Source: Methanomassiliicoccaceae archaeon
GTDB lineage: Archaea > Thermoplasmatota > Thermoplasmata > Methanomassiliicoccales > Methanomassiliicoccaceae
Length of the DNA: 64,000 bases
Direction of reading: 5' to 3'
Assembly: GCA_963728405.1 (NCBI GenBank)
Contig: CAVSJV010000017.1
Coordinates: 224,001-288,000, forward strand
Notes under the pieces: generated by a model
What the model saw: the letters and a program-made list of their open reading frames with translations, nothing else
What the model was told of the DNA's origin: nothing
Databases searched by the model: none
Program-made: the position numbers and the translations under genes
Shown: positions 35,372 to 57,286 of the stretch, piece by piece
Layout: each line of letters starts with the position of its first letter
Position numbering within the stretch: position 1 is the first letter of the stretch

Positions 35372-35579
35372 ATCGGAAACATAATCATAGACGCGGGTGC
35401 GCTCTGTGCGTTCGACCCCCTGGGACTGTGCGCCCCAGACCCCCGCGTCCAATTCGTTCCAAAATAGTTTGACCATAGGTTTTTCATCATTTACGATGTC
35501 TGCGGCCATCCAGGCCCTTACAAACGATGGTTAATATTATTTAATCAGGTTACCCTGGACCCTCAAGGAGGAGCAGCCT

Positions 35580-36947
35580 ATCCACGCCAAGGAGAAAGTG
35601 GCCCTGATCTCGGTCGCCGCGGCCGTGCTTCTGGTCTCCACCAAGCTCATCGTCGGCTACACGACGAACAGCCTAGGCATATTATCGGAAGCGCTGCACT
35701 CCGGAATAGATCTGATCGCCGCGGCTATGACTCTGTTCGCAGTGCGGGCGGCGGCGAGACCGCCGGACGCCGACCATATGTACGGGCATGAGAAGGTCGA
35801 GTCCCTGTCCTCTCTGGGCGAGACGCTTCTTCTGTTCATCACCTGCGGATGGATCGTCTACGAGGCCGTGAACCGCCTTTTCTTTCACAGCGTTGCGGTC
35901 GAATTGGGAGTGATCGCCCTGCTGGTCATGGTCATGTCCTTTGTGGTCGATTTCACCCGGTCCCGGGCTCTGCACCGGGCCGCGGTCAAATACCGGAGCC
36001 AAGCCCTGGAGGCGGATGCCATACACTTCTCGACGGACCTCATTTCCTCAGGTGTGGTCATCATCGGCATCCTTCTGACCATGGTCGGGTTCAAGGACTT
36101 CGATTCCATCGCCGCGTTGGGGGTGGCCGTGATCACGGTCGTCATCGGCTATCGGCTGTGGAAGAGGTCGGTCCATACCCTGTTGGACGGTGCACCGAAA
36201 GGCATATCGGAACAGGTGTCCGAGGAGATAATGCAGGTGCCTGGCATACACAAGGTGGAGCGGGTGCGGGTCCGAGATTCGGGAGCGGTCACCTTCATCG
36301 AGGCGACCGTGTTCGTCGACAAGGCGCTGCCCGTGGAGCAGGGGCACCGCCTAACGGACCTGGTCGAGGAGCGGGTGAAGGCCTCCATCCCCCACTCGGA
36401 CATCATCGTACACGCTGAACCGATCTGCCTGGAGAACGCATCGTTAGAGGATAGGATACGGGCGGAAGCGGCGGCCATGCCGGAGATCAGGGACGTCCAC
36501 AACATCGTTTTCACTGAGGGGCCGAATGGACGGCTGGTGGAGTTCCACATCGAGATGGACGGCGAACTGACGGTCGAAGAGGCCCACGTCTCAGCGACCC
36601 GATTGGAGGATCGGGTCATGGCCCTGGACTCCTGCATCGATAAGGTCACCACCCATATCGAGCCAGCCGGCTGTCCAGCCTGTCAGGGCGAAGCATCGGA
36701 GTACGAACAGCTGATCATCCAGGACACTATCGAACATATCTCCGGGCTGTTCCCCGAGGTGCTTTCATGCAAGGACATCCACGTCCACCTGACCAATAGC
36801 GGCTACAAGGTGTGGCTGTGCTGCCAGTTCGACCCCAAACTGAGCGTCAACAAGGCGCATGAGGTCGCCACCCGGCTGGAGGGGCACATACGTTCCCGGC
36901 ACAATGAGGTGGAGAGCGTCATCATCCATTACGAGCCCGGCCACTAG
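35580..36947 (+). CDS. Cation diffusion facilitator with three C-terminal dimerisation domains (start ATC 35580 or GTG 35598)
   Basis: EALHSGID, HMYGHEKVE, ADAIHF.TD; three repeats ending H.EP. Confidence 0.9.
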   Translation: MHAKEKVALISVAAAVLLVSTKLIVGYTTNSLGILSEALHSGIDLIAAAMTLFAVRAAARPPDADHMYGHEKVESLSSLGETLLLFITCGWIVYEAVNRLFFHSVAVELGVIALLVMVMSFVVDFTRSRALHRAAVKYRSQALEADAIHFSTDLISSGVVIIGILLTMVGFKDFDSIAALGVAVITVVIGYRLWKRSVHTLLDGAPKGISEQVSEEIMQVPGIHKVERVRVRDSGAVTFIEATVFVDKALPVEQGHRLTDLVEERVKASIPHSDIIVHAEPICLENASLEDRIRAEAAAMPEIRDVHNIVFTEGPNGRLVEFHIEMDGELTVEEAHVSATRLEDRVMALDSCIDKVTTHIEPAGCPACQGEASEYEQLIIQDTIEHISGLFPEVLSCKDIHVHLTNSGYKVWLCCQFDPKLSVNKAHEVATRLEGHIRSRHNEVESVIIHYEPGH

Positions 36948-37369
36948 TCGATGTCCAAGGCCAGGTTCTTCGTGAGCACCGAGCACTTCTGGCGATGGAC
37001 CATCCCGTCGCTGTCGACGAACAGCACCACCGTTCCCTGTTCATCCCGATCGACCTCTACCTCATAGCCACCGCCCTTGGCCTTGATCCTCTCCACCTTG
37101 CCATCTCCAAGAAAGCACAGGGCCTTCTCTACCGCGTCCTGCTGCCTCAGCGTCGGCTCGGGCGGCTCGTCCGATGGCTGCTCCTCGAAACAATGGCCGA
37201 CCTCACCGCGGGGATCGACGATGATATCGATGTCCCCTTTCAGGGTCCTGAACTGGAAGAAGTAGTTGTCCCTTAGCTCATACCGGAGCACGATCGGTTC
37301 ATTATCGCCGGTCATCTTGCCCACGCACTCCTTGGCAATCCTAAGAGCATCCTCGAACCCCACGACCAT
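36944..37369 (-). CDS. PepSY-like domain protein
   Basis: Two repeats of the EDA..IA / YEV.V...VD..G.V pattern. Confidence 0.5.
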   Translation of the reverse strand: MVVGFEDALRIAKECVGKMTGDNEPIVLRYELRDNYFFQFRTLKGDIDIIVDPRGEVGHCFEEQPSDEPPEPTLRQQDAVEKALCFLGDGKVERIKAKGGGYEVEVDRDEQGTVVLFVDSDGMVHRQKCSVLTKNLALDID

Positions 37370-37427
37370 CGACGCCCACCGCAGGAGATGGTTGGGCAGA
37401 CATGTGTAATGAACCTTTCAACGGCCG

Positions 37428-38534
37428 TCAGGCCTGGTAAGGGTCGTTGTTCCTCAAGCAGACGGCCATTTTCTTGGCCACATCACGGACACACTCGCCC
37501 TCCTTGACCTGCCGGGCCATATGCTCCGCAATGCTACCTTGCTCGATGCGCCGCTTGATCAGGGGGAGATACCGTCTCTCCTCAGGGGTGGCCACCCTCA
37601 GCGCTTCCCAGTACAGACGCAGCAGCTCCGGGCGGCAGGACGAGGTGCCTCTCCGGATCGCTTCCTCGTTCATGTCCAGGAGTGAGTCGTGATCATCCTC
37701 CAGGTTCAGGGGCGCCCTCAGCAGTGCGAGGACGAATGCGGTCACCGCCATATCGGAATGAAGGCACTCCTGCTCGTCGCAGGCCTTGAGCTCGAGGCAT
37801 TCGCGGTGGTAGCGGACGATCACCCCGCGGGAGTCGATCCACTCGTGGCAGAGCTCCTCGCCGCCGATCTTACGCAAATCGCGGTAGATCGACTCGATGA
37901 TCTCGTCATGATGCTGGCGGCTGCCTAGCTTTTCCGGGATGACCTGATTGCAGATGAGCGGCACACGTTCCTGGTTCTGACGGTAGAAGACGAGACGATT
38001 GTCCATTGAGCTGGTGCTATTGCCTTCCACGAACGGCGATGAGGCTGTGACCGCCACGAGATATGGAATGAGGGCACGCATGCGGTTGAACATGCTGACC
38101 ATCTTATCCTCGCTCTCGTAGTGGACGTTGATCTGCAACGCCTGAATGTTCAGCCAGCCATGCTGCTTGAGGTCGAAGAGGTCGTTGTAGATGTCATAGA
38201 TCTCCTGGTCCTCGTGGTTCCAATAGGAGGTCTGGTCGAGCGTCAGAAGCGGATGCATTCCCAGGCCCAGCAATGTATACTTGTTGTTCGTGGCCTGGTG
38301 GAACCGCTGCATTCCGCCGTAGAGCACGGCCTCCATGCGGGCAATGCTAGTATGAGGGGTCGCAGGTACGAGCTCGATTACGTTCTTCTGCAGTTCCTTG
38401 CTCAGGTTGATGTCCCCGAAGCGGAACTCGTTGATGATCTCGCCGTTGATGTCCTCGATTATCCGGTCGACCACCGGTTGGGGAGCGAGTTCTGCGTTGT
38501 TGACGGAATATTCGTGCTCAGTTCCGACGGTCGT
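37428..38534 (-). CDS. Glutamate--cysteine ligase (GCS2/YbdK) family protein; probable ACG start
   Basis: TVGTEHEYS, KELQKNVIE, GMHP, IQALQINV, ASSPFVEG, LELKACDEQ. Confidence 0.85.
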   Translation of the reverse strand, partial: TTVGTEHEYSVNNAELAPQPVVDRIIEDINGEIINEFRFGDINLSKELQKNVIELVPATPHTSIARMEAVLYGGMQRFHQATNNKYTLLGLGMHPLLTLDQTSYWNHEDQEIYDIYNDLFDLKQHGWLNIQALQINVHYESEDKMVSMFNRMRALIPYLVAVTASSPFVEGNSTSSMDNRLVFYRQNQERVPLICNQVIPEKLGSRQHHDEIIESIYRDLRKIGGEELCHEWIDSRGVIVRYHRECLELKACDEQECLHSDMAVTAFVLALLRAPLNLEDDHDSLLDMNEEAIRRGTSSCRPELLRLYWEALRVATPEERRYLPLIKRRIEQGSIAEHMARQVKEGECVRDVAKKMAVCLRNNDPYQA

Positions 38535-39026
38535 TGGATAACACCTCGGACAGAGGGAACTCAGCGACCTTCTCGGTCTCTGGCTCCTCCACCTTGCACA
38601 CACTGTCCAGTTCTTCCGGGGGAAGGGTCTGACCAGCTGCCGGATGTTCTGCACGGCCAGCTCGAACTGCTCATTGTAGACGGCCGGGTTCACTTTCAGG
38701 AAAGTGACCAGGTCACAGATGCGGTCCTTCTTGAGATAGATCTCCAGTTTGCCGTTCTTCACGTCGAAGGTGAACGGTCCGGCCATGCATGTTTCCGGCT
38801 TGACGTGCTGCACACGGCACCGGCCCTCGGAATAGCCGACGCAGAAGCCAGTGGACTTGCAGTCCAACATGCGGTGCTCGCGAAACACCACATTGTCGAG
38901 GGAGATCCCGTTCTCCACCAGTATGGAGATGCGCTCCTCGGTCAGTGGGGGCTTAGCGTAATAACAGCAGCGCCCACCGCACTTGTCGCAGATCTTGGTC
39001 AAAAGGTCAAAAGTAATCTGATTCAT
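38518..39026 (-). CDS. YkgJ/UPF0153 Cys-cluster protein (frameshift near 38625 causes an apparent fusion)
   Basis: CDKCGGRCC, C....FC.....C....KP..C..GPF; shifted frame gives LPPEELDSVCKVEEPETEKV then stop. Confidence 0.8.
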
Positions 39027-39358
39027 TTTAGAACACCTGTCGGGCGCCCCCTTGTCCGGGGGACGGAAGAGCCCGCACTTGCGGTTGCCTGGCAAGAAAC
39101 GTCTGAACATGACGCATCGAGGCAGAATATAGCGGTCATTCGAACCCGGGTATTTAGGTTTATCTTTTAGCCACCTGGCCTAGGATCCTGACTCGATATC
39201 TGAACGATCAGCATATGCCTCTTCGATCGATTGGAAGAATGATCAAGGAGGCGAGCTTTCAGCTCTCAAGCCACCTCAAAATTGTCTTACCGTTCCGCCC
39301 CACGGTCTCTTCGACCAACTGGCAGTCAAACGATCCTCTATTAAGAACTATTACTTGT

Positions 39359-40094
39359 CTAGAATTTTTTTTCGGACGTATTGAGCATTTTGTCCACTAT
39401 CAGAAGTTGCTCGTTCTCCATGGGCATCCATTCCCCCTGCCCCAGCCGCTGCGAGGAGATGATGATGGAGCGACCTGGATATTTATCAGTCTCCTCCCTA
39501 ACGCAGTACATGAGGGAGTACTGATCAAGCTTGCAGTACGCCGAGCGGTAGGCGTACACCTTCTCGCCGTCGCTCATGACTAGGTTGAAGCTGGAAGTTT
39601 CCGAGCCCAGGTGGTCCTTGATGTAGTCGATGGCGTCGACTATGCCCAACACGACATTTCCCCTTCTCTTGTCGACGTGGTAGAGGATCCAATGGAACAG
39701 CTGCTCCGAATCGGTCTGCCCCATTATGCGTCCCCGGTACTCGCGGGGAAGCATGTCTATGATCTCGCGCTTTGCGTGCACCGTGCCGTTGTGGCCGAAG
39801 ATATAATGGCCGTAGGTGAAGGGGGTGGGTGTTCTCCGAAGTATACCCTCCCACGCTCTCCTTGCGCAGGTGGGCAATGATGATGTTCGAGTCCGCGCTC
39901 ATGCAGGCGGTGACGAAGCGGGGGTCCCCGTTCGCCGCAGTGGGCGCCTTCTCCACCTGCACCCCACCATTGATGTACCAGCCGATGCCCCGGCCATGGG
40001 GATTGTGCCGCGCCTGTGCCCGGAACGGGACCATCAGGTCCGGCAGCTCGGGCGATTTGGGTTGCTCGACGATAAGGGCGAACAAGCGGCACAT
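39359..40094 (-). CDS. Class II glutamine amidotransferase / EgtC-YafJ-like Ntn hydrolase (frameshift near 39825)
   Basis: N-terminal MCR, IAHLR, NTHP(F), HNG, G.TDSE. Confidence 0.88.
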
Positions 40095-40204
40095 GAACTT
40101 AGAGAACATCTGTCGGAGCTATGTAGATCGTACCGTTGTTCGGCCCGTTCCGGCTAGGGTCGTTAGCGAAGGGCGATGGCAACTGCTCCCCGGACCCATC
40201 ACCT

Positions 40205-40405
40205 TTACACGCGGGACCGGCCTTTGATGAGCGAATATCTGGCGTCAACGCAAGCTGACGATCCCCTTATAACCCCGGCCGCCGCACATTTCTTGTTGAT
40301 CTCGCAGAAGAGGCATCTCTCCCAGACGCGGGGGGTCCCTCGCCATACGTTCGTTTTCTTGTCCTGCTCCGGCACTTGCTCCTTCGCTTCGTTGGAAGAT
40401 TCCAT
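40205..40405 (-). CDS. Small Cys-containing hypothetical protein
   Basis: 66 aa, CxxC-x5-C-x11-C. Confidence 0.45.
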   Translation of the reverse strand: MESSNEAKEQVPEQDKKTNVWRGTPRVWERCLFCEINKKCAAAGVIRGSSACVDARYSLIKGRSRV

Positions 40406-40495
40406 GAACGACCATCCCGGATGGTCATGCAATTGACAATAGAAGTGCCCTTCTCTCTGATTCTCAGGCCACCGCACTAAGTGTCGAGGAGGTCA

Positions 40496-41200
40496 TCAGA
40501 CAATGCTTAACAGCACCTTCCACGCCTCCAGCTCCACGTCCATCCGTCCGCAGATCTTGATGTATTCAGAGACGTAACCGTGGCGGAACATGTCCTTGAA
40601 CTTCTCCACCGCCTCCTGCTCCCCCGGCTTCGGCACCCAGCTTTCCAGTAGCAGGGAGGTCATGGCCACGTCCGCAAGATAGTCGCCCCGCACCGCTCCG
40701 CCCCAGTTGAAAATGATCGGTCCGTCGATGGAGACCATGATGCCCTCCGGTACGTAGTCCATGTGGCATAGCCAGTCCCCGTCCGGCATGCGGGCAAGCT
40801 TCTCTAATAGCCGCTTCCTCTCCGGCTCGGTGATCTCCTTCTTGGCCAGTAGCCTCTCGGTGAGCATATCCTTCAGTCTCGGCAATTCGGAGATCTTGTG
40901 CATGTGCACCTCGTGGTGCTCATGAGCGAAATATTCCGTTAGCCGCCTTAGCCAGGGGGGATGCTCGATGATCCACTGAGTATATGTGGGCCCGATCACC
41001 TTGTCGAACACGATCCCGAACCGACCCCCTTCCTCCACAACGCCGTGGACGAACGGTGCCTCCAGACCGTATTGCCTCGCCAGCAGGGTCTTCTCCATCT
41101 CGACCTCAGCCGTCTTTCTGGACGTGCCGGCCGCGAACAGCTTTACCACCTTGTTCCCCTCGATCCCCTTCATCTCGTAGGCGTTAGCAGCCGGTGACAT
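40496..41200 (-). CDS. Aminoglycoside-phosphotransferase-like kinase-fold protein
   Basis: VVKLF, LCHMDY.P, IIFNWG, G..LADVA; catalytic motifs divergent. Confidence 0.75.
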   Translation of the reverse strand: MSPAANAYEMKGIEGNKVVKLFAAGTSRKTAEVEMEKTLLARQYGLEAPFVHGVVEEGGRFGIVFDKVIGPTYTQWIIEHPPWLRRLTEYFAHEHHEVHMHKISELPRLKDMLTERLLAKKEITEPERKRLLEKLARMPDGDWLCHMDYVPEGIMVSIDGPIIFNWGGAVRGDYLADVAMTSLLLESWVPKPGEQEAVEKFKDMFRHGYVSEYIKICGRMDVELEAWKVLLSIV

Positions 41201-41346
41201 AGGCTTCCTCCAGACCGCTCCATACGGAGCCAAGTGTCGGAAAGCGGCGCACCACCATAATCTAAGTATCGACCGGATGTTGAGAATGAGGAGAAAGAAA
41301 GAGATAAAAGGGGTTTGGAAAGGATTCAACCGGCATAGGCATCTCC

Positions 41347-42757
41347 CTAGTTCGTCGACGTGGTGGTCGACATGCTCGGCTGCGTGGTCGGTGTGGTCAT
41401 CGGTGTGGTCGATGTTCCGGTCGACGACATCACCGCAGTCAGGTTCATGGAGGGCGGCACCAGCACCTTGTCAATGATGTGGATCACACCATTGGAGGCA
41501 ATTATGTTCTTCATGACCACCGTTACGTTCCCTACCATCACGGTCGTTCCATTGACCGTCACGTTCAGCTGCTCTCCCTCCACCGTGGTCACCGTACCGT
41601 TCTTCAGCTCAAAGGACGTGACCATTCCCGGTACCACATGGTAGGTCAGGAGCTTGGTCAGGTTCGCCTTGTCCGACGTGGTGAGCTTGCTGAGCAGCGC
41701 CTGGTCCAGAGCATTGAACGCCGCATCGGTCGGGGCGAACACTGTGTATGGACCCGTGCCGTTGAGCGTGTCGGTCAGGTTGGCCGCCGTGATCGCCGCG
41801 GCGAGCTTGGTGAGGTTGCCGTTCTCCATCGCCGTCTGCAGGATGGTCTTGGGCGGGATTAGCACCTTGTCGACCACCTGGATCACCCCGTTGGTGCCTA
41901 CGATGTTCTGGGTGATGATCTTGGCGTCATTGACCCAGGCTCCCGAAGCGTTAACCGTCAGCAACACATCGCTGCCCTCGGCGGTCTTAAGCAGGCTGGA
42001 GTTGGTGCCATTGCCGATCACCAGTCGATAAGGCAGCACATGATAAGTCAACAGCTTGGTCAGGTTGGCAGTATCATTGGCCGCTATCAGCTGATTGACG
42101 TAGGTCGAGTTGGCCAGTGCTGAGTTCGTTGGCGCGAACACCGTGAACGGACCCGTGCCGTTGAGCGTGTCAGTCAGGTTGGCCATCTGAACCGCTGCGG
42201 TGAGCGTGCTGAGATCGGTCGTGTTCATCATCGTCTGCACGATGGTCTCAGGGACCAGGACCTTATCGATGACGTATATCACGCCATTAGATGCTTCTAC
42301 GTCCTTGGTGATGATCTTGGCACCATTGACATACGAGCCGGTCTGGTTCGTGATGATGACCAGATCACTTCCCTCCAGCGTCTTGACGGTCACATTGTTG
42401 GTCAGCTGCGACGACAGGAGCTTCCCAGGCACAAACGTGGTATTTTAGCACCTTGGCCAGGCTCGCGTTGTCCATGGTCAGGTTGTTGAGCACGGTCTGG
42501 TTCATCGCCGCGAATGCGGTGTCGGTGGGAGCGAACACTGTGTATGGACCAGAGCCGTTCAACGTTTCAGTGAGGCCAGTAGTGTTCAGTGCCCCGGTGA
42601 GCTTGGTGAAATTACCATTGTCCTGCGCGGTCTGCACTACGCCCTTGCCCGAGGTGGCCTGTGAGTTCAAGTTCAGGCTAAGGCCTGACAACGCCACTGC
42701 TGCCAAAAGTGCGGCAGCAACGACCACCACCATAGCTGCTGTTATTTTCTTATCCAT
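41347..42757 (-). CDS. Secreted triple fasciclin (FAS1) domain protein (frameshift near 42432)
   Basis: Three TVFAPT..L.YHV..NGVI..IDKVL repeats; signal peptide; Thr-rich tail. Confidence 0.9.
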
Positions 42758-42890
42758 AATATCCCACGAACCCTCTATCGGAGGGCCGGGAGGACGTGTG
42801 AACGCCTTTTATTTAAGACAGGTCCGTCTGGATAGCGAACCCCCCATGGGGATGTCGAAGAAATATCAGATTAGATGGCGCTAATTCTTT

Positions 42891-43925
42891 TCAGAATCTG
42901 CGGCCCTGTCCAGCGTGCTCCATCCTCACCGAGGCCATAGCCTTCATGTTCGCCAACGGGGTCTCGGGGGCGAATCCGCAGCCAGGGGCGAGGATGTCGG
43001 TCCCCGCATCGATACAATCCCGGCATTCCTCTATCACGTATTCCGGCGAGCGGAACAGTAGAGTGGTGGTCGGCGAGATGTTACCGACCGCCGCGCAGCC
43101 CGGGCCAAGTACTTTCTTCACCTCCCTCATGTCCATGCTCTGGTCGACACTGATCCCATCCACACCGCTCATCCTCATCAGCGGGAGATTGAGCGAGGTG
43201 TTACCGCAGATGTGCATGATGCTCTTGGCCCCCGCCTCTCGCACCGCCCGGGCGATCCTCTGCTGGTATGGCAGTGCGAACTCCTGGAACTGTTCCGGTC
43301 CGACGATATCCCCAGTGGCGGTGGCGTCCACAAGGACGATGACATCCGCCCCGGCCTCCACGGCCGCTTTAACGTAATCGACATCCCACTGCACTGCCTT
43401 GTCCAGGACAGCCTTTAGAAAGTCGGGGTCGATGACCAAGTCCATCAAGGTGTCCGCTTCACCCCGCAGCTGGCCCGCCAGGGTGAACGCGGATATCACC
43501 CCGCACATCACCGGCGATTCCTTCCCGAGCACTTGACGCAATAGGGTTACCGCCTCGAGGACGACGGGGGCGCGCCCGTCCCGGTGAGGGTCTGGAACGT
43601 CCAGGAGGTCCAGGGAGTCCCTTGACGACACCGGCCTACCGGTGATGGCCGGCTGTCTCCGCTCCGATTCATGAGAGGTGACGGCGCCAAAGGCCGAAGC
43701 GTCCACCGCCGCATCGAACGGTACGCGGCAGCCCTCCAGGCCGGCTACAGTGTGGGCGGCGAGAGATAGACGGAACATAAGATCGGCCTTCTCGTTGGCC
43801 TGAGGCCAGAACGCCCCGGTCGCCTTCATGAGGTCCACCGTGCCGGTTTGGGTTGGCGATACCACCGGTACACGGTCCACCGACTGGTGCTCTAATACCG
43901 CCAAAAGCCGATCGCGCTCGTTCAT
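42891..43925 (-). CDS. mtaA: Methylcobamide:CoM methyltransferase (MtaA/MtbA family)
   Basis: UroD fold; VDRVPV.SPTQTG, HICG Zn motif, GNISP, APGCG. Confidence 0.85.
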   Translation of the reverse strand: MNERDRLLAVLEHQSVDRVPVVSPTQTGTVDLMKATGAFWPQANEKADLMFRLSLAAHTVAGLEGCRVPFDAAVDASAFGAVTSHESERRQPAITGRPVSSRDSLDLLDVPDPHRDGRAPVVLEAVTLLRQVLGKESPVMCGVISAFTLAGQLRGEADTLMDLVIDPDFLKAVLDKAVQWDVDYVKAAVEAGADVIVLVDATATGDIVGPEQFQEFALPYQQRIARAVREAGAKSIMHICGNTSLNLPLMRMSGVDGISVDQSMDMREVKKVLGPGCAAVGNISPTTTLLFRSPEYVIEECRDCIDAGTDILAPGCGFAPETPLANMKAMASVRMEHAGQGRRF

Positions 43926-44285
43926 GCTCGCTCATATCCCCGCGGCCACATCAATGTTGTTGACCGTTGCAGTGCCTGTCCGTGGGAACGCATATCGCGA
44001 TACAGACGCAATGGCCGGATAATTGATGGCGACGACAGCGATATCGGCCAATCGCAAAGTTACGGCGATGGGGATGATCGGGACGGGCAGGAGACGTCAT
44101 CCTCACTTCACGGTCATCGCTGGTTCATGTACCCCCCCTTACAGCGTTGACCAAAAGGTCAACGATGGCCAAATTTTCGCCCCTCTGGAATGACGATGAT
44201 AAGTGCGGCCAGCGGAGCGGTCTTCCGTATGACAGCCTTTGAGGTGAAAAACTTTATGAACGCCCCGTTCGAATAGATACCGCTC

Positions 44286-46557: not shown

Positions 46558-46763
46558 CCTCACCATCATCGCAAGAGAGGTTGTTGAACCTTACTCCCCA
46601 TGTCTGGACGTGCCTGGATAAAAGTGGCCAGCTGACCTCTGGCGGTCTGGAAAATTGGAACAGTGAACTTAATATCCTTGTTGCCCATGCTCAGAGAGCT
46701 TCGGTTCGGGGGAAATGAGACCTTCGGCGTTTCGGCGTCGAGCTCACAACGATCTAAGGGAAA

Positions 46764-47599: not shown

Positions 47600-48267
47600 C
47601 TTTTTCCCCCCGTGAACGGCCGGTCGTACATCTTGTCCCAAGAGCCATTACGCTTGGCCCGTTGCTTCCAGCCGCGGTTGCCGAAGGTTATGTAGAGCCA
47701 TCGGGGAATGCTCCTCCTGGCGATGAGCTCTATCGCTTCTTTAGGCAGTTCTTTGCCTTCCGTCAGAGCCTCGGCGGCCAGTTCCAGGGACCGGCGAGCG
47801 TTCCTAACCATACCTCCCAGTTCGGCGAGCGGCCGTCCGTCAATGGCCGACCCTCCCCCCAGTGCGAGGCCCCCCCTCCATTCGAACCCGGCGTTCCGGG
47901 CGAACAGGCGACATATGTTCAGGGCGACCCGGTTCTGCTCGGCCTCGATGAATCCGCAGTTGGCGATCGCCACCAGGGGCGTGTGGTCAGTGTTACCTTG
48001 CCTCTGCTGGGCGATGAGCCCCATGGCTCTGACCATCGCAGCAGGGGTCGAATCGACATAGGTCGGAAAGGACAGTATCACCAGGTCCGCGGTATCCACC
48101 GCACTGACCAGGGACCCTATCCCTTCCAGGGACCGCAGAGACCTCTGGACCTGCAGGTCCTCGATGTCCCAGCCCTTCTTCCTCAGGAGGCCCAGAAGAT
48201 AAAGGCCAAGTGAGCCGGAGGTCGATCGCTCTCCTCGCGGACTGCCTATCAGCAGTACCGCCTTCAT
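47596..48267 (-). CDS. Flavodoxin-like NAD(P)H-dependent oxidoreductase
   Basis: GSPR...STS, FPTYVD, NCGF.E. Confidence 0.8.
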   Translation of the reverse strand: MKAVLLIGSPRGERSTSGSLGLYLLGLLRKKGWDIEDLQVQRSLRSLEGIGSLVSAVDTADLVILSFPTYVDSTPAAMVRAMGLIAQQRQGNTDHTPLVAIANCGFIEAEQNRVALNICRLFARNAGFEWRGGLALGGGSAIDGRPLAELGGMVRNARRSLELAAEALTEGKELPKEAIELIARRSIPRWLYITFGNRGWKQRAKRNGSWDKMYDRPFTGGKR

Positions 48268-48833
48268 TCTTCCACCCCCGCCTTGGTGATCGCTTCCTTC
48301 ACCGCGATGGCCGATATCTCCGGCCGCTCGTTCGAGAACACTAGCGTTGAGGCCCATCCCACCGGCTGTATGTTGAGACTGTTCCTTTCCACCAGCTGAG
48401 CGAAGACCTTCTGGGCCTCCTCGTCCCGACCGGGAAGCAGTCCGATCGTCACCAGCCGCTGGACGGTATCATAGCGTCGGGCATGGTGGACCTCACCATG
48501 GACGGTGCGGAAGAATGGGAGCAGGGAACAGATCGATCGATCCAGGGCCTTCTTGAGATGGTACGAATACCCGCCGAAGGTCACCGGGGTCAGGAACACC
48601 ACCAGATCAGAAGTGGCGAATTCAGAGGCCACCTTCTCCGCGTCGTCCGCGATGACACACCGCCCCGGGGTCCTGGTCCAGCAGCCGAAACAGCCAGTAC
48701 AATCGGCGATATCCTTGTCCCGAAGCTTGATGACCTCGACCTGATGCCCCTTCGCCCTCAGGTATTCGGCCGCCGCTTCCCTGGCCACCCCCATCTCGTC
48801 CTGGACCGAACCGTCCAATAGCACCGCTTTTAT
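48264..48833 (-). CDS. Iron-sulfur flavoprotein/flavodoxin family protein (possible ATA start)
   Basis: CTGCFGCW.RTPG.CVI.DD, TPVTFGGYS..LK..LDR. Confidence 0.82.
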   Translation of the reverse strand: MKAVLLDGSVQDEMGVAREAAAEYLRAKGHQVEVIKLRDKDIADCTGCFGCWTRTPGRCVIADDAEKVASEFATSDLVVFLTPVTFGGYSYHLKKALDRSICSLLPFFRTVHGEVHHARRYDTVQRLVTIGLLPGRDEEAQKVFAQLVERNSLNIQPVGWASTLVFSNERPEISAIAVKEAITKAGVEE

Positions 48834-48959
48834 CGTATCCCCTCGGCCATCAATGAAATGTCTCCGGAATATTTATCGCTAGCCCAGAACCTTGTCCGCA
48901 TTGGCACGCCGTCGCTAAAAAGTCAAATTTTAAGAGCTTTGTGGCCATGATGGGTCTCG

Positions 48960-49274
48960 ATGTCCTACTCCAAGGCTAGGAAGCCGAGCTTCAACATGAA
49001 GAAGATCTACAACATGTGGCGCATGACCGCTCTGGGTCTGGACCTGGCCGGCCTGATCACGTTCTTCTTCGCCCTGGGATTGGAGGAGTTCACCATCCCG
49101 TTGATGGCCGCTTCCGTCCTCATGTTGTGGGCCGCGGTGGCGGTGTCCTACAAGTACGTGAAGATCGAGTTGGGAAAGCCCTTCGAGGCGGTGGCCCGGT
49201 TCTCTTACTTCATCAGCCTGGGCCTGGCCCTGGTGCTCAGCGTCCTCACGGCCATCACGGCCTTGAACGGCTGA
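48960..49274 (+). CDS. Hypothetical 3-TM membrane protein
   Basis: Hydrophobic ORF, genome-typical codons. Confidence 0.65.
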   Translation: MSYSKARKPSFNMKKIYNMWRMTALGLDLAGLITFFFALGLEEFTIPLMAASVLMLWAAVAVSYKYVKIELGKPFEAVARFSYFISLGLALVLSVLTAITALNG

Positions 49275-49292
49275 GTGTAACGCCTTCCGCTT

Positions 49293-49541
49293 TCACTTCT
49301 CCTGCAGCTTGCAGGATTCGCAGGAATCGGCCGTCCTAAGATAAAGGAGCACCACTACAAGGCCGACGAACACGCCGATCACTATCGCTGCTCCACCCAA
49401 CACGGTGGCGAAGCCTACCAGCGTTGGGATTATGAGTATCATGATGAAGGTGGCGAGGGCTAGCAGCCATGTCAGGAGGTAAATCGGATAGCGTCCGGGA
49501 ATTATCGCGCCGCAGACCCGGCATCTTCGGGACAAAGCCAT
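49293..49541 (-). CDS. Small membrane protein with terminal CxxC motifs
   Basis: CRVC, 2 TM, CESC. Confidence 0.5.
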   Translation of the reverse strand: MALSRRCRVCGAIIPGRYPIYLLTWLLALATFIMILIIPTLVGFATVLGGAAIVIGVFVGLVVVLLYLRTADSCESCKLQEK

Positions 49542-49664
49542 GAATGAACTATTAGAACCAGCCTTGCATAATCTTTTGCGGTCCGAGCAGTAGTTACATC
49601 GGCATATCGTTTGAGATAATATAATGTGGTCCCTATTAATAGTGACAGTGAGTCGCTTTCCGTA

Positions 49665-51153
49665 ATGGCCGCTCAGGTCAAGCTCAGCGAAGACGCTAAA
49701 AAGATCGTGCTCGGCACCCTACTAGCGATATCCATCGCCTTGATCTTCATCTTCCACTTCGTGCTCGACAGTGGCATCGTGTTCACCCAGTTCTTCTACC
49801 TGCCTATCGTAGTGGCAGCCATATGGTACTATTTCCGCGGTATGTCGGTCGCGTTCATCTTGGGCGGGGCACTGATCATAAGCGATCTCATCACTGGTGA
49901 CCACGAGATCCTGCTGGACGATTTGATGAGAGCGATCATCTTTGTCGGGGTGAGCGGTGTCGTGGCCACCCTTAGCGATCGCCTGCGTAACCTGAATCTG
50001 GAGCTGGAAAGAGCCAATGCCGGTCTTGAGAGCAAGGTCGCCGAGCGTACCGTCGAGTTGCAAGAGGAGAAGGAGCTCCTGGCCGTGACCCTGGCCAGCA
50101 TCAGCGATGGGGTGATCACCATCGATAACGCCGGTAGGGTACGGAGCATCAACCGGTACGCGGAAGTGCGATTGGGAGCGGACCGCTCTCGAGCACTGGG
50201 CAGGCCCCTTTCCGATATCGTCAAGATGATCGACGATACGGGAGAGAGGAGCATTATGCAGGGGGGAGCGGAAAAAGGCAGCCTAGTGGCCTTCAACGGC
50301 ACAACGATCACTACACCCTGGGGTGCGAGAATGGTGGTGGACGGGGGTCTTTCTCCCATCATCATGGACGGTAAGGTAGCGGGTGAAGTGATGGTGTTCC
50401 TGGGACGTCACCGAGCGGGAATTACTGAGGGAGCAGATCCAACGCGCTCAGCGCCTGCGTTCTGTCGAGCTCATGGCCGGGGGCATGGCCCATGATTTCA
50501 AGAACCTCTTCTCCATCGTTCATCTCAACATCGAACTGGCCAGACAAGAGACAGTCGGTCGGGGCGCAGAACGGTTGGGCGAGGCCATCAAGGCCTTGGT
50601 ACGAGCGGATGACCTTACCCAGACCCTTGGCGTCCTGGCACGGGCCGGGAACCCTAACAAGGAGCTGGTGGACGTGGCCTCGATGGTGATAGGTGCGGCA
50701 GAGGTCGCTTTGGGAGGCGAGGGGGGGCTCGATTTTCATATGGACCCCGACCTCTGGAAGGCAGAGCTGGACCGCACCCAGATGGGGCAGGTCATCAGCA
50801 ATCTGGTCCTTAATGCAAAACAGGCCATGTCCGGGTCAGGGGTCATCAAGGTGTCCGCTGCGAACATCCACACAGTGTCGGAGGACGGCCTGCCCATAAA
50901 AGAGGGCAAGTACGTACGCATCACCGTCACCGATACCGGAGAGGGGATCTCCCAGGACAAGCTCCGTCAGATCTTTGAGCCATACTATACCACCAAACCC
51001 CATGGTACCGGCCTAGGCCTGGTCATAGCTCAGTCGGTGGTGCTGGCCCACCAGGGGTACATCTCGGTGGAGTCAACGCTGGGAAAGGGCACAACGATGA
51101 GCGTCTACATACCAGCGTTACCCGATCAGAGGGCTAGCCATTCGACCAAATGA
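49665..51153 (+). CDS. Membrane PAS sensor histidine kinase (frameshift near 50400)
   Basis: 4 TM, coiled coil, PAS (SISDGVI), AHDFKN H-box, NLVLNA, DTGEG, YTTK..GTGLGL. Confidence 0.9.
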
Positions 51154-51712
51154 GGGTGCCGAGGGCAGATCAGCGGGTCGTACAGCTAACGTTGCTTGTA
51201 GACCTGGAGAGCAGGAACGATCGACCAGAGAAATTAAGGGGCCTTTTTCCCAGGCGCTGCTCTTCGCCTGCGGAAAGGCCAGGTAGAGAAGGACATCATC
51301 AGCTGGGCATTATGCTCATGGCCTAGGCTGACGGGAGGCCATTGGAGAACGACATGAGCATCCGCTTCAACGACCCGTACATGAACGTTCTGCAATGGAA
51401 ATAAAGGGGTCCTCATAGGTCTTCCTCGATAGCACGGCCAGTGGCCCAAGGATGTGGGGCATTTGAAACTGGTTCCAGGCCAATGCTCGAGGGGGCGATC
51501 GCCCTCGAGTTCACTGCTCTTCTCCTACGCCCCCGTGGGCTATCTGAACCTGCCGACTGAAAAACGAAGGATCGCTGTTGAAGAGTAGCTGCGATCTCGA
51601 CCTGAACGTAACAGCCGTCATTTGATCAACCTTGGAAGCCTTAAGGTGGGAGATCTTCACGATTTAATAAAAGGTAAACGGAAAAGGTTTGGGAATTTTG
51701 CCAGCACAGCCA

Positions 51713-52240
51713 TCAGGTAGCGGCTACTGCTGGCGAGCCGGACCGTATCCCGCCGATCTGTTCCATCTCGCCGGCGCTCATTATCCTGTTGAGGTCCAGG
51801 AGCATGACCAAACGGTCCGGCAGCTTGCAGATGCCAGTGAGGAACCCGGCCTCTGTGCCAACGGTCAGGGTGGTCGGGGGAGGAGAGATGCTTGCCCGTG
51901 GCACCCTCATGACGTCCTCGACCGCATCGACGATTATCCCGATCTGAGTATCGCCTATCTCGGCAATGATTATCCGCGATGCGGCGGTGATGCTGCCATT
52001 ACCGTCGGAGCTGATGTTGAACCGTTTCTTTAGGTCGATGACCGTGGTGATCTGACCACGGAGGTTCAGGACCCCTTCGATGAACGCGGGCATCTTAGGT
52101 ATCTTGGTTATATCATGGACCTTGCCGATCTCGCGGACCTGGGAGACCCTGACACCGAAGGTCTCCTTGCCCAAGCGGAAGGAGACTATCTGTTCCTCGT
52201 CCCCGGTCAGCTCGACCTTTTCTCTCTTTCTTCTGGCCAT
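51713..52240 (-). CDS. cheW: Chemotaxis coupling protein CheW
   Basis: V.FRLG.E.FG, GVLNLRG.I..VIDL, GIIVDAV. Confidence 0.93.
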   Translation of the reverse strand: MARRKREKVELTGDEEQIVSFRLGKETFGVRVSQVREIGKVHDITKIPKMPAFIEGVLNLRGQITTVIDLKKRFNISSDGNGSITAASRIIIAEIGDTQIGIIVDAVEDVMRVPRASISPPPTTLTVGTEAGFLTGICKLPDRLVMLLDLNRIMSAGEMEQIGGIRSGSPAVAAT

Positions 52241-52250
52241 CTGACCGACC

Positions 52251-54805
52251 TCACTCCGCCTGAGTCTGTATGCCGCGCTTGCTGAGCGCTTCCTTGACCT
52301 TCAACGGCACCTTGGGGGTATCGCCCTTGACCGCCGGCCTTTTCACCTGCGGCTTGGGGGCATGAACCTTGATGGGGGCGGCCGCCGGCGGGGCCAGTTC
52401 GACCTCGCCATCGTCTATCTTGAACTGGGCGGCGACCTTCTTCAGGTTGATGGCCATCTCCGAGAGCGACTGGGCCCGCGCCGTCATGTCCTCCATGCTG
52501 GCGGTGAGCTCTTCGGTCGATGAGGCCGATTCCTCCGATGCGGAGGCGGTCTCCTCGGCGATGGACGCGATGCCGTCGACCGACTTGGCCGCCCTCTGCT
52601 GGCCTTCCTTCTGCTTGTCCATGAGTGTAGAGATGGCCATGACCTCACTGGATGTGGCGGCGGCCATGACCGATATCTCCTGGAATGCTCTTCCGGTCTC
52701 GTCGACGATGACCATTCCTTCCGCGGCCGTCCTGGTGCCGCGCTGCATCGACTCGACCGCCTTGCTCGTCTCCTGCTGCACTTCCTTGATCATCTTGGCG
52801 ATGCGCTCGGCCGCTTCGCGGCTGTCCTCGGCGAGGTTCTTGACCTCCTCGGCGACGACGGCGAACCCTCTTCCTTGCTCTCCCGCTCTGGCCGCCTCGA
52901 TGGCGGCGTTCAGAGCGAGGAGATTGGTCTGGTCCGATATGCCGGTGATGACCCCGACGATCTCGCCGATCTCCTCCGACCGCTTGCCGAGGATCTCGAT
53001 GACCTTGGCCGACTCGTCGACGACCTTGGCGATCTCCTTCATCTTCTTGATGGTGTTCTCCACCGCGGCCTTGCCCGTATTGGCCGATTCGTTGGCCTTG
53101 CCGGCGGCTTGCGAGGCCATCCCGGACTTGTTGACAACCTCGATCACCGATGAGGATATCTCGGACATGACCCGGGCCGTCTCCTCTACCTGCGATGCCT
53201 GGCTCTGCGCGCCCTTACTGATCTGCTGGATGGCCGCCGACACCTGTTCGGTGGAGGCGTTCATCTCCTCGGCCGAGGAGGCGAGCTCCTGGGAGGTCGA
53301 GGATACCATATCGATCGACTCATTGACCTGCTTCAGCAGGCCGACCATGCTCTCCCCGATGGCGTCCAGGGACTGGGAGAACCTGGTGAAGTCACCCTGG
53401 GTATCGATGTTGACCCGGGCGGTCAGATCCCCGCTCGCGTAGGATTCGGCGATCCTCATGGCCTCGTTGATGGGCACTATGACCGCATCCAGGGTATCGT
53501 TGACTCCCTGGACGATCTTATGGTAATCACCCTGGTGCTTGGACGCGTCGGCACGAGTGGTAAGCTTACCTTCCACCGCGGCCTTGCTGAGCATATTCGT
53601 GTCAGCTACCAGACCATTAACAACGTCTATGCACTGATTGAGATTGTTCTTGATCGTGTTGAAATCGCCGTTGTAGTTGTCGGTGATCTTAGCGGGAATG
53701 TCTCCCTTAGAGATCTCATCGACATATCGGCGGAGAGTTCAGCGGACCGATGACTGCATCGAGACAGTCATTGACGCCGGTCACAATCTCGCCGTACACT
53801 CCCTTGTGCTTGCCACCATCAGCTCGGGTCGCCAGGCGACCCTCCACCGCGGCCTGGGATAACATGGCGGCATCCTGGGCCAGGGCCATGATCGACTCGG
53901 CAACCAGACTCATGTCCTTGTTGATGGAAAAGTAGGTGCTGTGCAGTTCCTTAGTGTATGCATCGGCATCCTGGACCGCCAGATCGACATCCAGGTTGCC
54001 CTCGGCCAGCCGGCGCAGGTTCTTTCTGACCTGTCCTACCCATACATCCGTATACGCCTTGCCCTTGGCGCTGGCCGAGACATCCTGGACAATTTCGATG
54101 TGTCCGATCTTTCTCTCCCTTGGCATCCTTGATGAACGCCGCATCTACCATGAAGTTCATCCCGGCCTGATCGAAGAAGGTCTTGGGCCTGTTGGCCCTG
54201 AGGCACTCCACGCCGCAGTCCTTGGTCTTGCAGATACCCGCGCCCCAGTTGGAGCAATGCTTGCCCAGCACATCCTTGCGCTTGACCTTGAGCATGTCCT
54301 CGACCGGCTTGTTGATGAACAACCAATTCATGTTGATGTCCGTGACCGACAATGGCCAGGGCAGAGTATCCAGGATCTGCTCATATAGGAACACCTGTTG
54401 CTCGAGCTTTTTGTTGTCGCCCGCGGGGACGAGGTAAAGTACGCCGCCGACAGGCTTTCCGCCCTCAGCGAAGACGGGCTCTCCGCTTACGGTGAAGGCT
54501 ATGCTGGAACCATGATCGTCGGTGAAGTTGATCGCCTCAGGCCTGGGCACACGGCCCACTTTGATGGCTTCCATTACCGGATCGCCTGGTTTCCCCAGCG
54601 CACCGCCCATGGCGTCCTTTAGACGCATTCCGGGTGCTTCCGCGGCAGATAGGCCAATGGCCTCGGTAGCGGGTCCATTGATCGTCACTACCTTCCAAGC
54701 GTTGTCTACTAGCAATGCAGGTATGGGCACATGGGTCACCAGGCCCTCGGCCGACTCTCTGCTCAATGGTTTATCCGGTCCTTCGGTCTGATTCTTTACA
54801 TCCAT
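52251..54805 (-). CDS. Cytoplasmic methyl-accepting chemotaxis protein (2 PAS, poly-HAMP, MA domain; frameshifts near 54110 and 53730)
   Basis: [30 protein letters not shown]; repeated AAVEG.L.TRAD..KH.G.Y; no TM seen. Confidence 0.9.
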
Positions 54806-54956
54806 GAACAAATCACCTATACATTTTCCGATGCCCCATGCCTGAGACGAGGCTATTGAATTGAGCTGAGGACCCCATCCGGAGTATATATCAAGGGAAC
54901 AGGCGGCTATCACTTTTGGTTTTAAATTTTGAGATTATTATTAAACGATTAAATAT

Positions 54957-54970
54957 CATTATCGATAATG
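54957..54970. promoter_or_regulatory. Perfect 14-bp palindrome, candidate operator
   Basis: CATTATCGATAATG beside the AT-rich promoter region of the MCP gene. Confidence 0.4.
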
Positions 54971-55322
54971 GCCTACAGTTTACTATCCAGCCAGATGTAG
55001 AGACGAGGCTCGATATTTCGGAAACCGTTATATCGGAACGTCATGAAAAAGGATCAGGCTATCAGCGATGACGTCCAGAATCGAGAATGAGTTTGATAAC
55101 AGTTTACCAGCTGGCTGTTAACTAATGATATAATCGTCCAGGGAACGAAAGAGTAGAAGAGAAGAACCATGGGGCAGGGGTGGTCCTAGCGTCCATTATC
55201 AATGCCTTGTTATCGAGATGATCGACGGCACCTTCCCGTCTCGACGGCTTTATGCCCTCACTACACCTGATCAATGACCTATCGGAGTAAGATATATTCA
55301 TGGGGGGCTCGAACATTGTGCT

Positions 55323-56078
55323 GTGGAAAAGAACGAGATCACCGTCATACCATCAAGCGAGCGGGAAACCAGGGATCTGGGCTGGCTTCAGACCACTTGG
55401 CTCTTTTCCTTTGATGATTACTACGATCCTAAGAACCTGGAGTTCGGGGTGATTAGGGTGTTCAATGATGATGTCATCGCCCCGGGTAAAGGGTTCCCGG
55501 CCCATCGGCACAGCGAGATGGAGATCGTGACCTACGTGCTGGAGGGGCGATTGTCTCACCGGGACAGCGCGGGCAACCAGGGGTTCCTAGGCCCAGGGGA
55601 GGTACAGAAGCTGAGCGCCGGGACCGGGGTGCTGCATTCGGAGATGAACGATGGCAAAACACCCGTTCACCTCTATCAGATCTGGTTCCTTCCCAACCGG
55701 GGAGGCTTGAAACCTTCCTACCAACAGGGGAAATTTACCATCAAAGAACATCCCAACGTCCTCGTCCCGATGGTCTCGGGCGAGGCGAGGGAGGGGGTTC
55801 TCACCATGAGCTCCCCCGCCACGCTGTACGGCTCCCTCCTGGAAAAGGGGCACGCGCTTAGTGTCGGCAGACCCCGGCGCAAGTTATTCCTATATATTAC
55901 ATCGGGACGGGTGGGCGTGAACGGATCGGTGCTGGAACAAGGGGACCAGTTGCGCTGCACCACAACCACTGCCTTGAGTCTGGAAGCACATGAGGATGCG
56001 AATTTCGTTCTTATCGATATGCCGGAGGACATTTTGAATGGTTCGAGAGGATATCGGTGGATCATCGGAGTTTGTTGA
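55323..56078 (+). CDS. Pirin family protein (YhhW-like)
   Basis: FSF..YYDP, FNDD, GFP.H.H..MEIVTY, AGTGV.HSE, QIWF. Confidence 0.92.
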   Translation: MEKNEITVIPSSERETRDLGWLQTTWLFSFDDYYDPKNLEFGVIRVFNDDVIAPGKGFPAHRHSEMEIVTYVLEGRLSHRDSAGNQGFLGPGEVQKLSAGTGVLHSEMNDGKTPVHLYQIWFLPNRGGLKPSYQQGKFTIKEHPNVLVPMVSGEAREGVLTMSSPATLYGSLLEKGHALSVGRPRRKLFLYITSGRVGVNGSVLEQGDQLRCTTTTALSLEAHEDANFVLIDMPEDILNGSRGYRWIIGVC

Positions 56079-56400
56079 AGGTCGGCTGAAGAACGTGACC
56101 GCGGGAGGAAGGCCCCTGGTGGTCGCGAGAGTGGAGGGAGAGCTCTACGCCATGGACGGGAAATGCTCTCATATGGGCTTCGATCTGGGCAAGGGAAGAT
56201 TGGATGGCCACATGGTAACCTGCAAGTTGCATGGAGCTCAGTTCGATATTAGGACCGGGGAGAGGGTGAAGAACCTGTCCGCCCACGACATGACCGTGTA
56301 CTCAGTAGTGGAAGAGGGTGGAAGAGCCTTCGTGGACCTGACCTGCCCATCGGTACCATCCTCTGGAGCGGTCCAGAGCGTTTTTAGCCGCCCTGGGTAG
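56038..56400 (+). CDS. Rieske [2Fe-2S] ferredoxin
   Basis: CSH...CKLHG..FDIRTG. Confidence 0.88.
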   Translation: MVREDIGGSSEFVEGRLKNVTAGGRPLVVARVEGELYAMDGKCSHMGFDLGKGRLDGHMVTCKLHGAQFDIRTGERVKNLSAHDMTVYSVVEEGGRAFVDLTCPSVPSSGAVQSVFSRPG

Positions 56401-56500
56401 GATCGCTGACATATCGTTGATATACTGGTCGCAGAATGGAAGAACCGGGAAAGGGAATCAATAAGAGACCTGCAGGAAATCAACCTGAGGAGGAGATACC

Positions 56501-57286
56501 ATTCCAGAGTTGCCCGAGGTGGAGACGTTCAGACGGTACATCGAGAGGACCTCGCTGGATAAGCCAATCAAGAAGGTCGAGGTCAACAACACCATCGTCC
56601 TCGGTAAGACCTCGAAAGAGGACCTCCGCAAAGCGGTGGAGGGCTCCTCCTTCCGGTCGGTGCATAGGATCGGCAAACACCTGCTCGTGGAACTGAGCGA
56701 GGGAGGCTGGCTTACCCTACATTTCGGGATGACGGGGGAACCGGTGTTCTTCGATGACGAGGCCCCCCGTTTCCCCAGGGTCATCATCCACTTCCAGGAC
56801 GGAGCGTTGGCCTTCGACGATCCTCGTATGCTGGGAAGGGTCGGCCTCTCTCCAACAGTGGAGGAGTTCGTTCGCCGGAAAGGTCTGGGGCCGGACGCGC
56901 TCTCTATCTCCAAGAAGGAGTTCCTGGCCAGGTTCGAGAAGGCCAGGGGAGCGATCAAGCCGGCGCTCATGAACCAGCATAAGCTCGCCGGGATCGGCAA
57001 TCTGTACGCCGATGAGGTGCTGTTCCAGAGCCGCCTGGATCCCCGGGCCGAGCTGAGCAGCATGAGCCGCCAGGACCTAGAGGTCATCTATCAGAACATG
57101 AAAAAGGTGCTCAAACTTTCAATAGCGAAGGGTACCGACTTCTCCAAGTTCCCCCCGACCTACCTCCTATCGCACCGACGCAAGGGGGCGATCTGTCCGG
57201 GCTGCGGAGGAACGACCGAGACCATTACCCTGGGGGGTAGGACCACTTATTTCTGTCCAGCATGTCAGACCAGAGGCGGAAGATGA
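56501..57286 (+). CDS. mutM: Formamidopyrimidine-DNA glycosylase (Fpg/MutM), ATT start
   Basis: ATT-CCA-GAG-TTG-CCC-GAG-GTG-GAG = (M)PELPEVE; R.GK, HFGMTG, GIGNLYADE, C-terminal Zn finger. Confidence 0.95.
   Translation: MPELPEVETFRRYIERTSLDKPIKKVEVNNTIVLGKTSKEDLRKAVEGSSFRSVHRIGKHLLVELSEGGWLTLHFGMTGEPVFFDDEAPRFPRVIIHFQDGALAFDDPRMLGRVGLSPTVEEFVRRKGLGPDALSISKKEFLARFEKARGAIKPALMNQHKLAGIGNLYADEVLFQSRLDPRAELSSMSRQDLEVIYQNMKKVLKLSIAKGTDFSKFPPTYLLSHRRKGAICPGCGGTTETITLGGRTTYFCPACQTRGGR

Follow-up and report, generated by a model that had tools for sequence, protein, structure and literature searches.

Archaeal translation is described, in the accessible portions of two accounts, as starting at AUG, GUG or UUG (PMC4705826, PMC6237735), and the part covered of a comparative genomic study of the Methanomassiliicoccales names these three codons only (PMC4153887). 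The closest described exceptions are bacterial. In Escherichia coli, infC and pcnB are given as the only confirmed genes with non-canonical starts, AUA, AUC, AUU and CUG reach 1-2% of the level obtained with AUG, and ACG and AUC starts gave an N-terminal Met (10.1101/063800, covered in part). An efficiency of about 0.3% of that of ATG is stated for ATT in the consulted part of another source (PMC10666635). No report of non-NTG starts in Methanomassiliicoccales was found in the literature, Table S2 in the supplement of PMC4153887 lying outside the coverage. Here we analyze a stretch of 64,000 nucleotides from a Methanomassiliicoccaceae archaeon (contig CAVSJV010000017.1, positions 224,001 to 288,000; hereafter the window), in which four genes carry a Shine-Dalgarno sequence (SD) followed by ATC, ACG, ATA or ATT at the expected start. 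They encode a cation efflux protein (CDF), a GCS2-family carboxylate-amine ligase, a flavodoxin-like protein of the FMN-reductase family (hereafter the flavoprotein) and formamidopyrimidine-DNA glycosylase (Fpg). Comparison with related genomes makes it probable that these are genuine SD-driven near-cognate starts, retained on particular genes as weak starts. NCBI translation table 11 includes ATT, ATC, ATA and CTG among its alternative starts besides ATG, GTG and TTG; to our knowledge ACG is not on that list. Annotators called none of the present near-cognate codons as starts, ACG included.

The genes described here resemble infC and pcnB, with their AUU starts, in having a one-mismatch codon placed after an SD, conserved among relatives and set on a conserved gene. 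In the two E. coli genes the protein level is low or controlled and the initiator tRNA inserts Met, two features that we infer for the archaeal genes as well. The systems differ in that archaea use aIF1 and aIF2, without IF3, and in the wider range of codons (ACG, ATA, ATC, CTG) and of genes found here. Moreover, unlike infC, whose start codon is part of an autoregulatory loop, the aIF1 gene begins with ATG after GGAGGAGGAG in both the source genome and the related genome G009, so that autoregulation of the infC type is not seen.

The source genome (G000; 2.73 Mb in 18 contigs, 55-61% G+C, 94% complete) contains the window at C17:224001-288000. Named relatives of its GCS2 gene come from Methanomassiliicoccus and from Methanomassiliicoccaceae MAGs, in keeping with a methanogen of the order Methanomassiliicoccales. 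It was searched, together with 30 related genomes, with each of the four proteins, and the codon aligned with residue 1 was then read at each locus. The original prediction had placed a near-cognate codon 5-7 nt after an SD in each gene, and all four codons and their SDs were found (Table 1). Pfam searches confirmed the four gene families. The codons also lie where a start is expected, each on the start-Met column of its orthologues, which begin with MPELPEVE (Fpg), MTIGTEHEY (GCS2), MKVLILDGS (flavoprotein) or MN[VLI]KERVA (CDF).

The SDs were compared with the rules that hold in the same genome. The 3' end of the 16S rRNA (gene located with Rfam RF01959) is GGAUCACCUCCU, a canonical anti-SD, and the expected SD is therefore a piece of AGGAGGUGAUCC. 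A simple codon-usage gene model of G000 yielded 2657 genes predicted from open reading frames (ORF-genes). For 1087 ATG starts near the frame opening, the anchor distance, counted from the final G of GGAGG up to the start codon, peaked at 8 and was mostly 7-11. The four odd sites all fall inside this range, with distances of 9 for CDF, 10 for GCS2 and 8 for both the flavoprotein and Fpg. An SD of at least 6 nt at a distance of 7-11 preceded 0.8% of 4725 internal codons, 9.7% of the 1087 ATG starts and three of the four odd sites, SD strength at these four being not fully independent evidence as they were originally picked for having an SD.

The independently assembled genome G003 carries ATC, ACG, ATA and ATC at the CDF, GCS2, flavoprotein and Fpg columns, respectively. 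Comparison of the four genes in G000 and G003 gave a synonymous divergence (dS) of 0.52-0.73, a ratio of non-synonymous to synonymous divergence (dN/dS) of 0.11 for CDF, 0.14 for GCS2, 0.16 for Fpg and 0.17 for the flavoprotein, and a protein identity of approximately 82-87%. Such dN/dS ratios reflect purifying selection on all four genes and indicate that they work as proteins and need a start. The original prediction had considered substitution errors unlikely, and the non-NTG codons found at the same columns in independent assemblies of other species bear this out. Since odd codons conserved in independent genomes are not assembly errors, the error explanation can be taken as excluded for the four codons on the strength of this comparison. 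ATT, ATA and ACG are also rare as sense codons in G000 (0.6%, 1.0% and 1.1%), so that their presence on the four Met columns does not correspond to a random draw of sense codons.

Support is highest for Fpg, GCS2 and an ABC ATPase encoded outside the window, and lower for CDF and the flavoprotein because of nearby GTG codons. In the first three cases there are genomes in which no canonical in-frame start is possible with the essential N-terminus, namely G003 for Fpg, G004 and G015 for GCS2, and G000 and G009 for the ABC ATPase.

For Fpg, 19 full-length loci were compared. The start column reads ATT in G000 and ATC in G003, the relative closest to it (83% identity); the other 17 have ATG, and all continue with PELPEVE. 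Members of this family need Pro2 as their N-terminus. In G003, where the SD is GGAGGAG, an in-frame TGA lies 10 codons upstream of the ATC and no ATG, GTG or TTG occurs between the two. Leu4 is encoded there by CTG, and the TTG alternative of G000 is thus missing. As a control outside the lineage, 78 loci from metagenome contigs (29-71% identity) were read: 56 start with ATG, 19 with GTG, one with TTG and two with CTG. The two CTG loci (L263 and L285; position 301) are related, come from one sample and are SD-led (GGGAGGTCATC CTG and TGGAGGTCAAC CTG), and their close relative L265 has TTG. An exact-pattern scan of the metagenome contigs gave no match to the fpg 5' end of the G000/G003 type.

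The GCS2 start column is ACG in 13 of 13 genomes of the family (15 loci, four genera), and the SD GAGGTG is kept in all 15 loci read. The adjacent Thr codon is variable (ACC in 8, ACG in 2, ACT in 2, ACA in 1), in contrast with the fixed ACG of the start column. Codon 3 is GTG in only four genomes. In G004 and G015 it is GTC or ATC, and an in-frame stop lies upstream with no NTG between this stop and the ACG. Outgroup GCS2 proteins from other Methanomassiliicoccales (55-59% identity) start with MTIGTEHEY, their Met falling on the ACG column. Two further species, L079 and L081 (Methanomassiliicoccus sp. UBA345 and UBA386), carry CTG at this column (position 601). This change also alters the tail of the overlapping upstream protein, from Asn-Asp to Pro-Asp. 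In the overlapping gene, the C of the ACG occupies the third position of an Asn or Asp codon, where a synonymous C-to-T change would give ATG. Although AAT and GAT account for 26.5% and 35.9% of Asn and Asp codons, respectively, all 13 genomes have C; a naive estimate puts the probability of this at approximately 0.008, which is only a rough indication, as the 13 genomes are related and not independent. The C at a synonymous site and the alternation between ACG and CTG suggest that the weak codon is preferred at GCS2, and not merely tolerated.

The annotation of this gene is disturbed by its neighbor. Alignment with the intact G003 gene revealed a 1-nt deletion near position 38630 in the upstream CxxCxxCC gene of G000. 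Because this deletion runs the CxxCxxCC gene into the GCS2 frame, the table-11 ORF around GCS2 extends upstream to an ATG at 39110 and reads as a false ORF of 560 aa, the N-terminal part of which is the separate CxxCxxCC gene. The database protein from the G000 contig is likewise a false fusion, of 532 aa. Database GCS2 proteins span 300-404 aa; that of M. luminyensis, at 345 aa, is without the conserved GTEHEY motif.

The ABC ATPase frame opens with an ACG directly after a stop codon in both G000 and G009. The Walker A motif (GPTGAGKT) comes before the next NTG, which is 48 codons downstream. The stop-to-stop frame measures exactly 365 aa in eight genomes, with the start codon read in G000 and G009. 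Judged by these features, the case is as strong as those of Fpg and GCS2.

The reading that we favor involves no unusual component. An ordinary 30S subunit would be positioned by good SD pairing, and the normal CAU initiator Met-tRNA would pair with a one-mismatch codon (AUU, AUC, AUA or ACG, and CUG in other genes). The protein would begin with Met and be made at a low rate, and in Methanomassiliicoccus and its family selection would keep such weak starts for certain proteins, probably of low abundance. It is from sequence that we infer ribosomes starting at these codons, the insertion of Met and the low expression. The original prediction had offered weak starts as a regulatory layer, and this is the interpretation toward which the comparison leans. 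A broader version can be put forward only tentatively: the Methanomassiliicoccaceae may use AUU, AUC, AUA, ACG and CUG as a stable, selected expression setting on about 1-2% of their genes, the weak codon of GCS2 having been held since before the genera split, as ACG or CTG and never as ATG.

The frequency of such starts was assessed by a census in which 1.45 Mb of G003 and 1.19 Mb of G009 were compared with G000 by BLASTP of stop-to-stop frames. Columns were counted when the first NTG in the reference was ATG and the next 12 residues were aligned. Of 292 columns with ATG in G009, 250 are occupied by an NTG in G000 as well, and 31 have an NTG of G000 within 6 codons; the rest comprise 5 with a stop, 1 with another codon, and 5 with a near-cognate codon and no nearby NTG (CTG, AGG, ACG, AAG and ATA). 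Fpg falls in the within-6-codons class of this comparison owing to its TTG. The reverse comparison (303 columns) gave 252 in the same column, 42 within 6 codons, 1 stop, 6 near-cognate and 2 other codons. With G003, the same five classes (same column, within 6 codons, stop, near-cognate, other) numbered 326, 5, 4, 5 and 6 for 346 columns, and 322, 26, 4, 6 and 9 for 367 columns in reverse. The onset of the BLAST alignment was also tried as a start marker and was rejected: conservation of the 5' regions extends from G000 to G003, and even to G009, and the alignments reach the upstream stop.

A second screen required an SD in both G000 and G009 together with a stop or poor conservation upstream. 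It contained 141 canonical column pairs, and its listing was curated by hand. The start-like non-NTG columns of G000 in this screen were those of CDF, an M20 peptidase, a membrane protein, g882 and the ABC ATPase (Table 1). Converse cases also occur, with an SD-led ACG in G009 or ATT in G003 where G000 has ATG. Approximately eight candidates among the 361 C17 genes with a G009 counterpart (of 496 ORF-genes) correspond to 1-2%, a rate that depends on curation by hand and on screens in which an SD was in part required, and that counts one lineage. The codons among SD-led candidates were ATT, ATC, ATA, ACG and CTG; AAG and AGG were never found.

Eleven extra SD-led candidates were also considered. 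Two of them, g557 and g894, were set aside as explained by a downstream ATG, and several have no counterpart in the covered parts of G003 and G009; g2292 and g595 remain as candidates. A second ABC ATPase gene, g1776 (C10:4678, minus strand), lies on a 7-kb contig of 51.5% G+C. It has an ACG after an in-frame TGA and an 8-nt SD (GAGGTGAT) at a distance of 10, with a TTG 4 codons downstream and no close counterpart in the covered parts of G003 and G009.

Table 1. Genes, Shine-Dalgarno sequences (SD) and further start candidates. Plain coordinates are positions in the window; those with a contig prefix refer to the source genome.
Feature	Position	Strand	Details
CDF (cation efflux)	35580..36947	+	start ATC 35580-35582; Pfam Cation_efflux 6e-43 and ZT_dimer; in-frame GTG 35598, six codons downstream
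CDF SD AAGGAGGAG	35565..35573	+	6 nt before ATC; 6-nt exact match to the anti-SD template, anchor distance 9
GCS2-family carboxylate-amine ligase	37428..38534	-	start ACG 38534-38532; Pfam GCS2 1.4e-37
GCS2 SD GAGGTG	38542..38547	-	7 nt before ACG; 6-nt match, anchor distance 10; within the 3' end of the upstream gene
Upstream CxxCxxCC gene (PF03692)	38518..39026	-	TGA 38520-38518 overlaps GCS2 codons 5-6; frame-shifted in G000
Flavodoxin-like FMN-reductase-family gene	48264..48833	-	start ATA 48833-48831; Pfam FMN_red 2.3e-11; in-frame GTG 48824
Flavoprotein SD GAGGGG	48839..48844	-	5 nt before ATA; 4-nt exact match, anchor distance 8
Fpg	56501..57286	+	start ATT 56501-56503; Pfam Fapy_DNA_glyco, H2TH, zf-FPG_IleRS; in-frame TTG 56510
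fpg SD GAGGAGGAG	56487..56495	+	5 nt before ATT; 6-nt match, anchor distance 8; in-frame TGA 56486-56488
ABC ATPase	C17:204331		ACG directly after in-frame TGA in G000 and G009; SD GAGGTGG (G000), GGAGG (G009)
M20 peptidase	C17:385283		SD-led CTG in G000, ATG in G009
Membrane protein	C17:363928		SD-led CTG in G000, ATG in G009
g882	C7:227964		ATC in both G000 and G009; G000 also has GTG 3 codons upstream
Candidate	C17:311326		ATA in G000, ATG in G009
Candidate	C5:26251		ACG in G000, ATG in G009

The alternative that survives best, which we nevertheless regard as unlikely, is a lineage-wide lowering of stringency: the machinery of the Methanomassiliicoccaceae would accept near-cognate codons generally, and changes of ATG would drift to fixation. 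Mismatches do appear to be tolerated at all three codon positions (CTG, ACG and ATH), and candidates occur in G000, G003 and G009, with four genera represented for GCS2 and CDF. The approximately eight candidates among 361 genes also compare with just two confirmed non-canonical starts in E. coli, according to the part covered of 10.1101/063800. Against this stands the state of the initiation machinery. The original prediction had named an altered aIF1 as a possible cause. Inspection did not uphold this proposal: aIF1 (PF01253) is present as one copy in each of the 31 genomes, at approximately 80-89 bits, and is conserved and ordinary. The G000 protein is identical to those of G009 and G010 save for one or two C-terminal substitutions, is close to the aIF1 of other families, and aligns without gaps over 97 residues with that of M. 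jannaschii (4MO0; E 5.5e-37). An altered initiator tRNA, also proposed, was not found either. The initiator tRNA (C7:230378-230453) is canonical, with a CAU anticodon, an A1:U72 pair and three G:C pairs by the anticodon loop, and no credible second A1:U72 initiator was present among the 44 tRNAs called by ARAGORN in this 94% complete genome. The only other call flagged for A1:U72, a tRNA-Gly with a 2.5-kb intron, was taken as spurious. The enzymes of N6-threonylcarbamoyladenosine (t6A) synthesis, Kae1 and Sua5, are present. Thus nothing inspected, whether aIF1, initiator tRNA, t6A enzymes or anti-SD, points to altered machinery.

Other observations also speak against general laxity. Most start columns are strictly kept in the G009 census, the GCS2 ACG looks selected and not drifting, and the SD-led CTG starts of fpg in two of the 78 unrelated metagenome loci argue for a phenomenon at the level of the gene and against a peculiarity of the lineage. 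The original interpretation stands in part: the codons are real and their use as weak starts is the favored reading; the inspected aIF1 and initiator tRNA show no alteration. A related comparison is offered by near-cognate initiation in eukaryotes, which is policed by eIF1, the homologue of aIF1. The tolerated codons are the same and AAG and AGG are absent in both. Unlike in eukaryotes, the start is set here by SD pairing and not by scanning and Kozak context, and the near-cognate codon serves an ordinary enzyme gene as its sole start, with no upstream ORF or N-terminal extension involved.

A second alternative, which we consider improbable, holds that translation really begins at canonical codons close by, the near-cognate codons being incidental, either as sense codons or as untranslated ones. 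It draws on the canonical in-frame codons found 3-6 codons downstream in three of the four genes of G000 (GTG 35598 in CDF, GTG 48824 in the flavoprotein and TTG 56510 in Fpg). At the 13 CDF loci the start column is ATC in G000, G003, G015 and G013, ACG in G001, G002 and G010, and ATG in G004, G005, G006 and G008, whose homologues begin with MN[VLI]KERVA; the two remaining loci have GCG (G009) and CAC (G007). The SD is conserved in G003 as GAGGAGGAG. The Val7 codon, which corresponds to GTG 35598, is GTG in 9 of the 12 readable relatives' loci, the N-terminal region of G007 being different. It is GTA or GTC in G001, G002 and G013, all of which are also without ATG at the first column. The flavoprotein column is ATA in G000 and G003, 5 nt after GAGGGG or GGAGGG, and ATG in G026 (MKVLILDGS). 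The in-frame GTG is also present in G003, but the codon at that position is CTT in G004, G005, G006 and G008. The spacing to the SD is moreover wrong for both GTG codons, with AAGGAG only 3 nt before GTG 35598 and approximately 16 nt between the SD and GTG 48824. Starting Fpg at its TTG would remove three N-terminal residues, and this codon is CTG in G003. Finally, the explanation is inapplicable to GCS2 or the ABC ATPase.

AT-rich, TATA-like stretches were observed approximately 45 nt upstream of both starts: TTAATATTATTTAATC in 35520-35545 for CDF, and GATAAATATTCC (minus strand) in 48870-48885 for the flavoprotein. They suggest that CDF and the flavoprotein are each transcribed from a promoter of their own, with a short SD-bearing leader.

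Several points weigh against genuine near-cognate starts and have to be set beside this evidence. The downstream canonical codons in three of the four genes, and the wide conservation of the CDF GTG, are the first of these, and CDF and the flavoprotein could plausibly start at their GTG codons. Second, the GCG at the CDF column of G009 is not a one-mismatch codon and is unexplained by the model. G006, G004, G005 and G008 (L038-L041) have GTT at the flavoprotein column, a codon that differs from ATG at two positions. These GTT loci have GGAGGG followed by 6 nt upstream of the codon and no conserved canonical codon nearby, and they too are unexplained. Third, a homology-free scan for orphan SDs with a non-NTG codon after them returned 149 sites in G000, which were noisy and showed no clear excess of near-cognate codons; the scan was dominated by frameshifts, shadow ORFs and TGA-containing GGTGA matches. 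Last, the aIF1 of S. solfataricus discriminates against AUU in vitro, according to the accessible part of PMC4705826.

A third alternative concerns GCS2 and the ABC ATPase only, and appears very unlikely. Ribosomes that have translated the upstream gene would pass on to these genes by termination-reinitiation or by a +1 shift into the GCS2 frame, with no free initiation at ACG. The arrangement of the genes lends itself to such coupling: GCS2 and the gene upstream of it share 17 nt, GCS2 being in the +1 frame, and the ACG of the ABC ATPase comes directly after the in-frame TGA of its upstream gene. Reinitiation also needs a start codon, however, so that ACG would stay the start. In G011 the gene upstream of GCS2 stops at a TAA right after GAGGTG, and the ACG is still kept. 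At the ABC ATPase junction, the C-terminus of the upstream protein shows no conservation between G000 and G009. Fpg, CDF and the flavoprotein, for their part, are preceded by AT-rich intergenic DNA and are uncoupled from any upstream gene.

The weakest alternative, substitution errors of the assembly or conversion of ACG to AUG by C-to-U RNA editing, deserves hardly any credence: G000 does contain likely indel errors, both in the CxxCxxCC gene and outside the window (Kae1, PF00814, split over two adjacent frames at C17:171537; a KH-domain gene at C17:~129460 with an extra A after its fourth codon relative to G009), but the same or similar near-cognate codons recur in independent assemblies of other species, and editing cannot make AUG from ATT, ATC, ATA or CTG. 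C-to-U editing of ACG starts occurs in plant organelles, and the likeness lies in an ACG at the conserved Met position of an intact gene; we know of no mRNA editing in archaea.

If near-cognate starts of this kind are genuine, weak starts would be a maintained expression setting in an archaeon with an ordinary-looking aIF1, and the fidelity of archaeal SD-led initiation would become testable in a culturable methanogen. Annotation would be affected by a systematic error, gene callers truncating or over-extending such genes. Were only the gene-specific reading to hold, the result would be a moderate extension of the infC and pcnB type of start to archaea.

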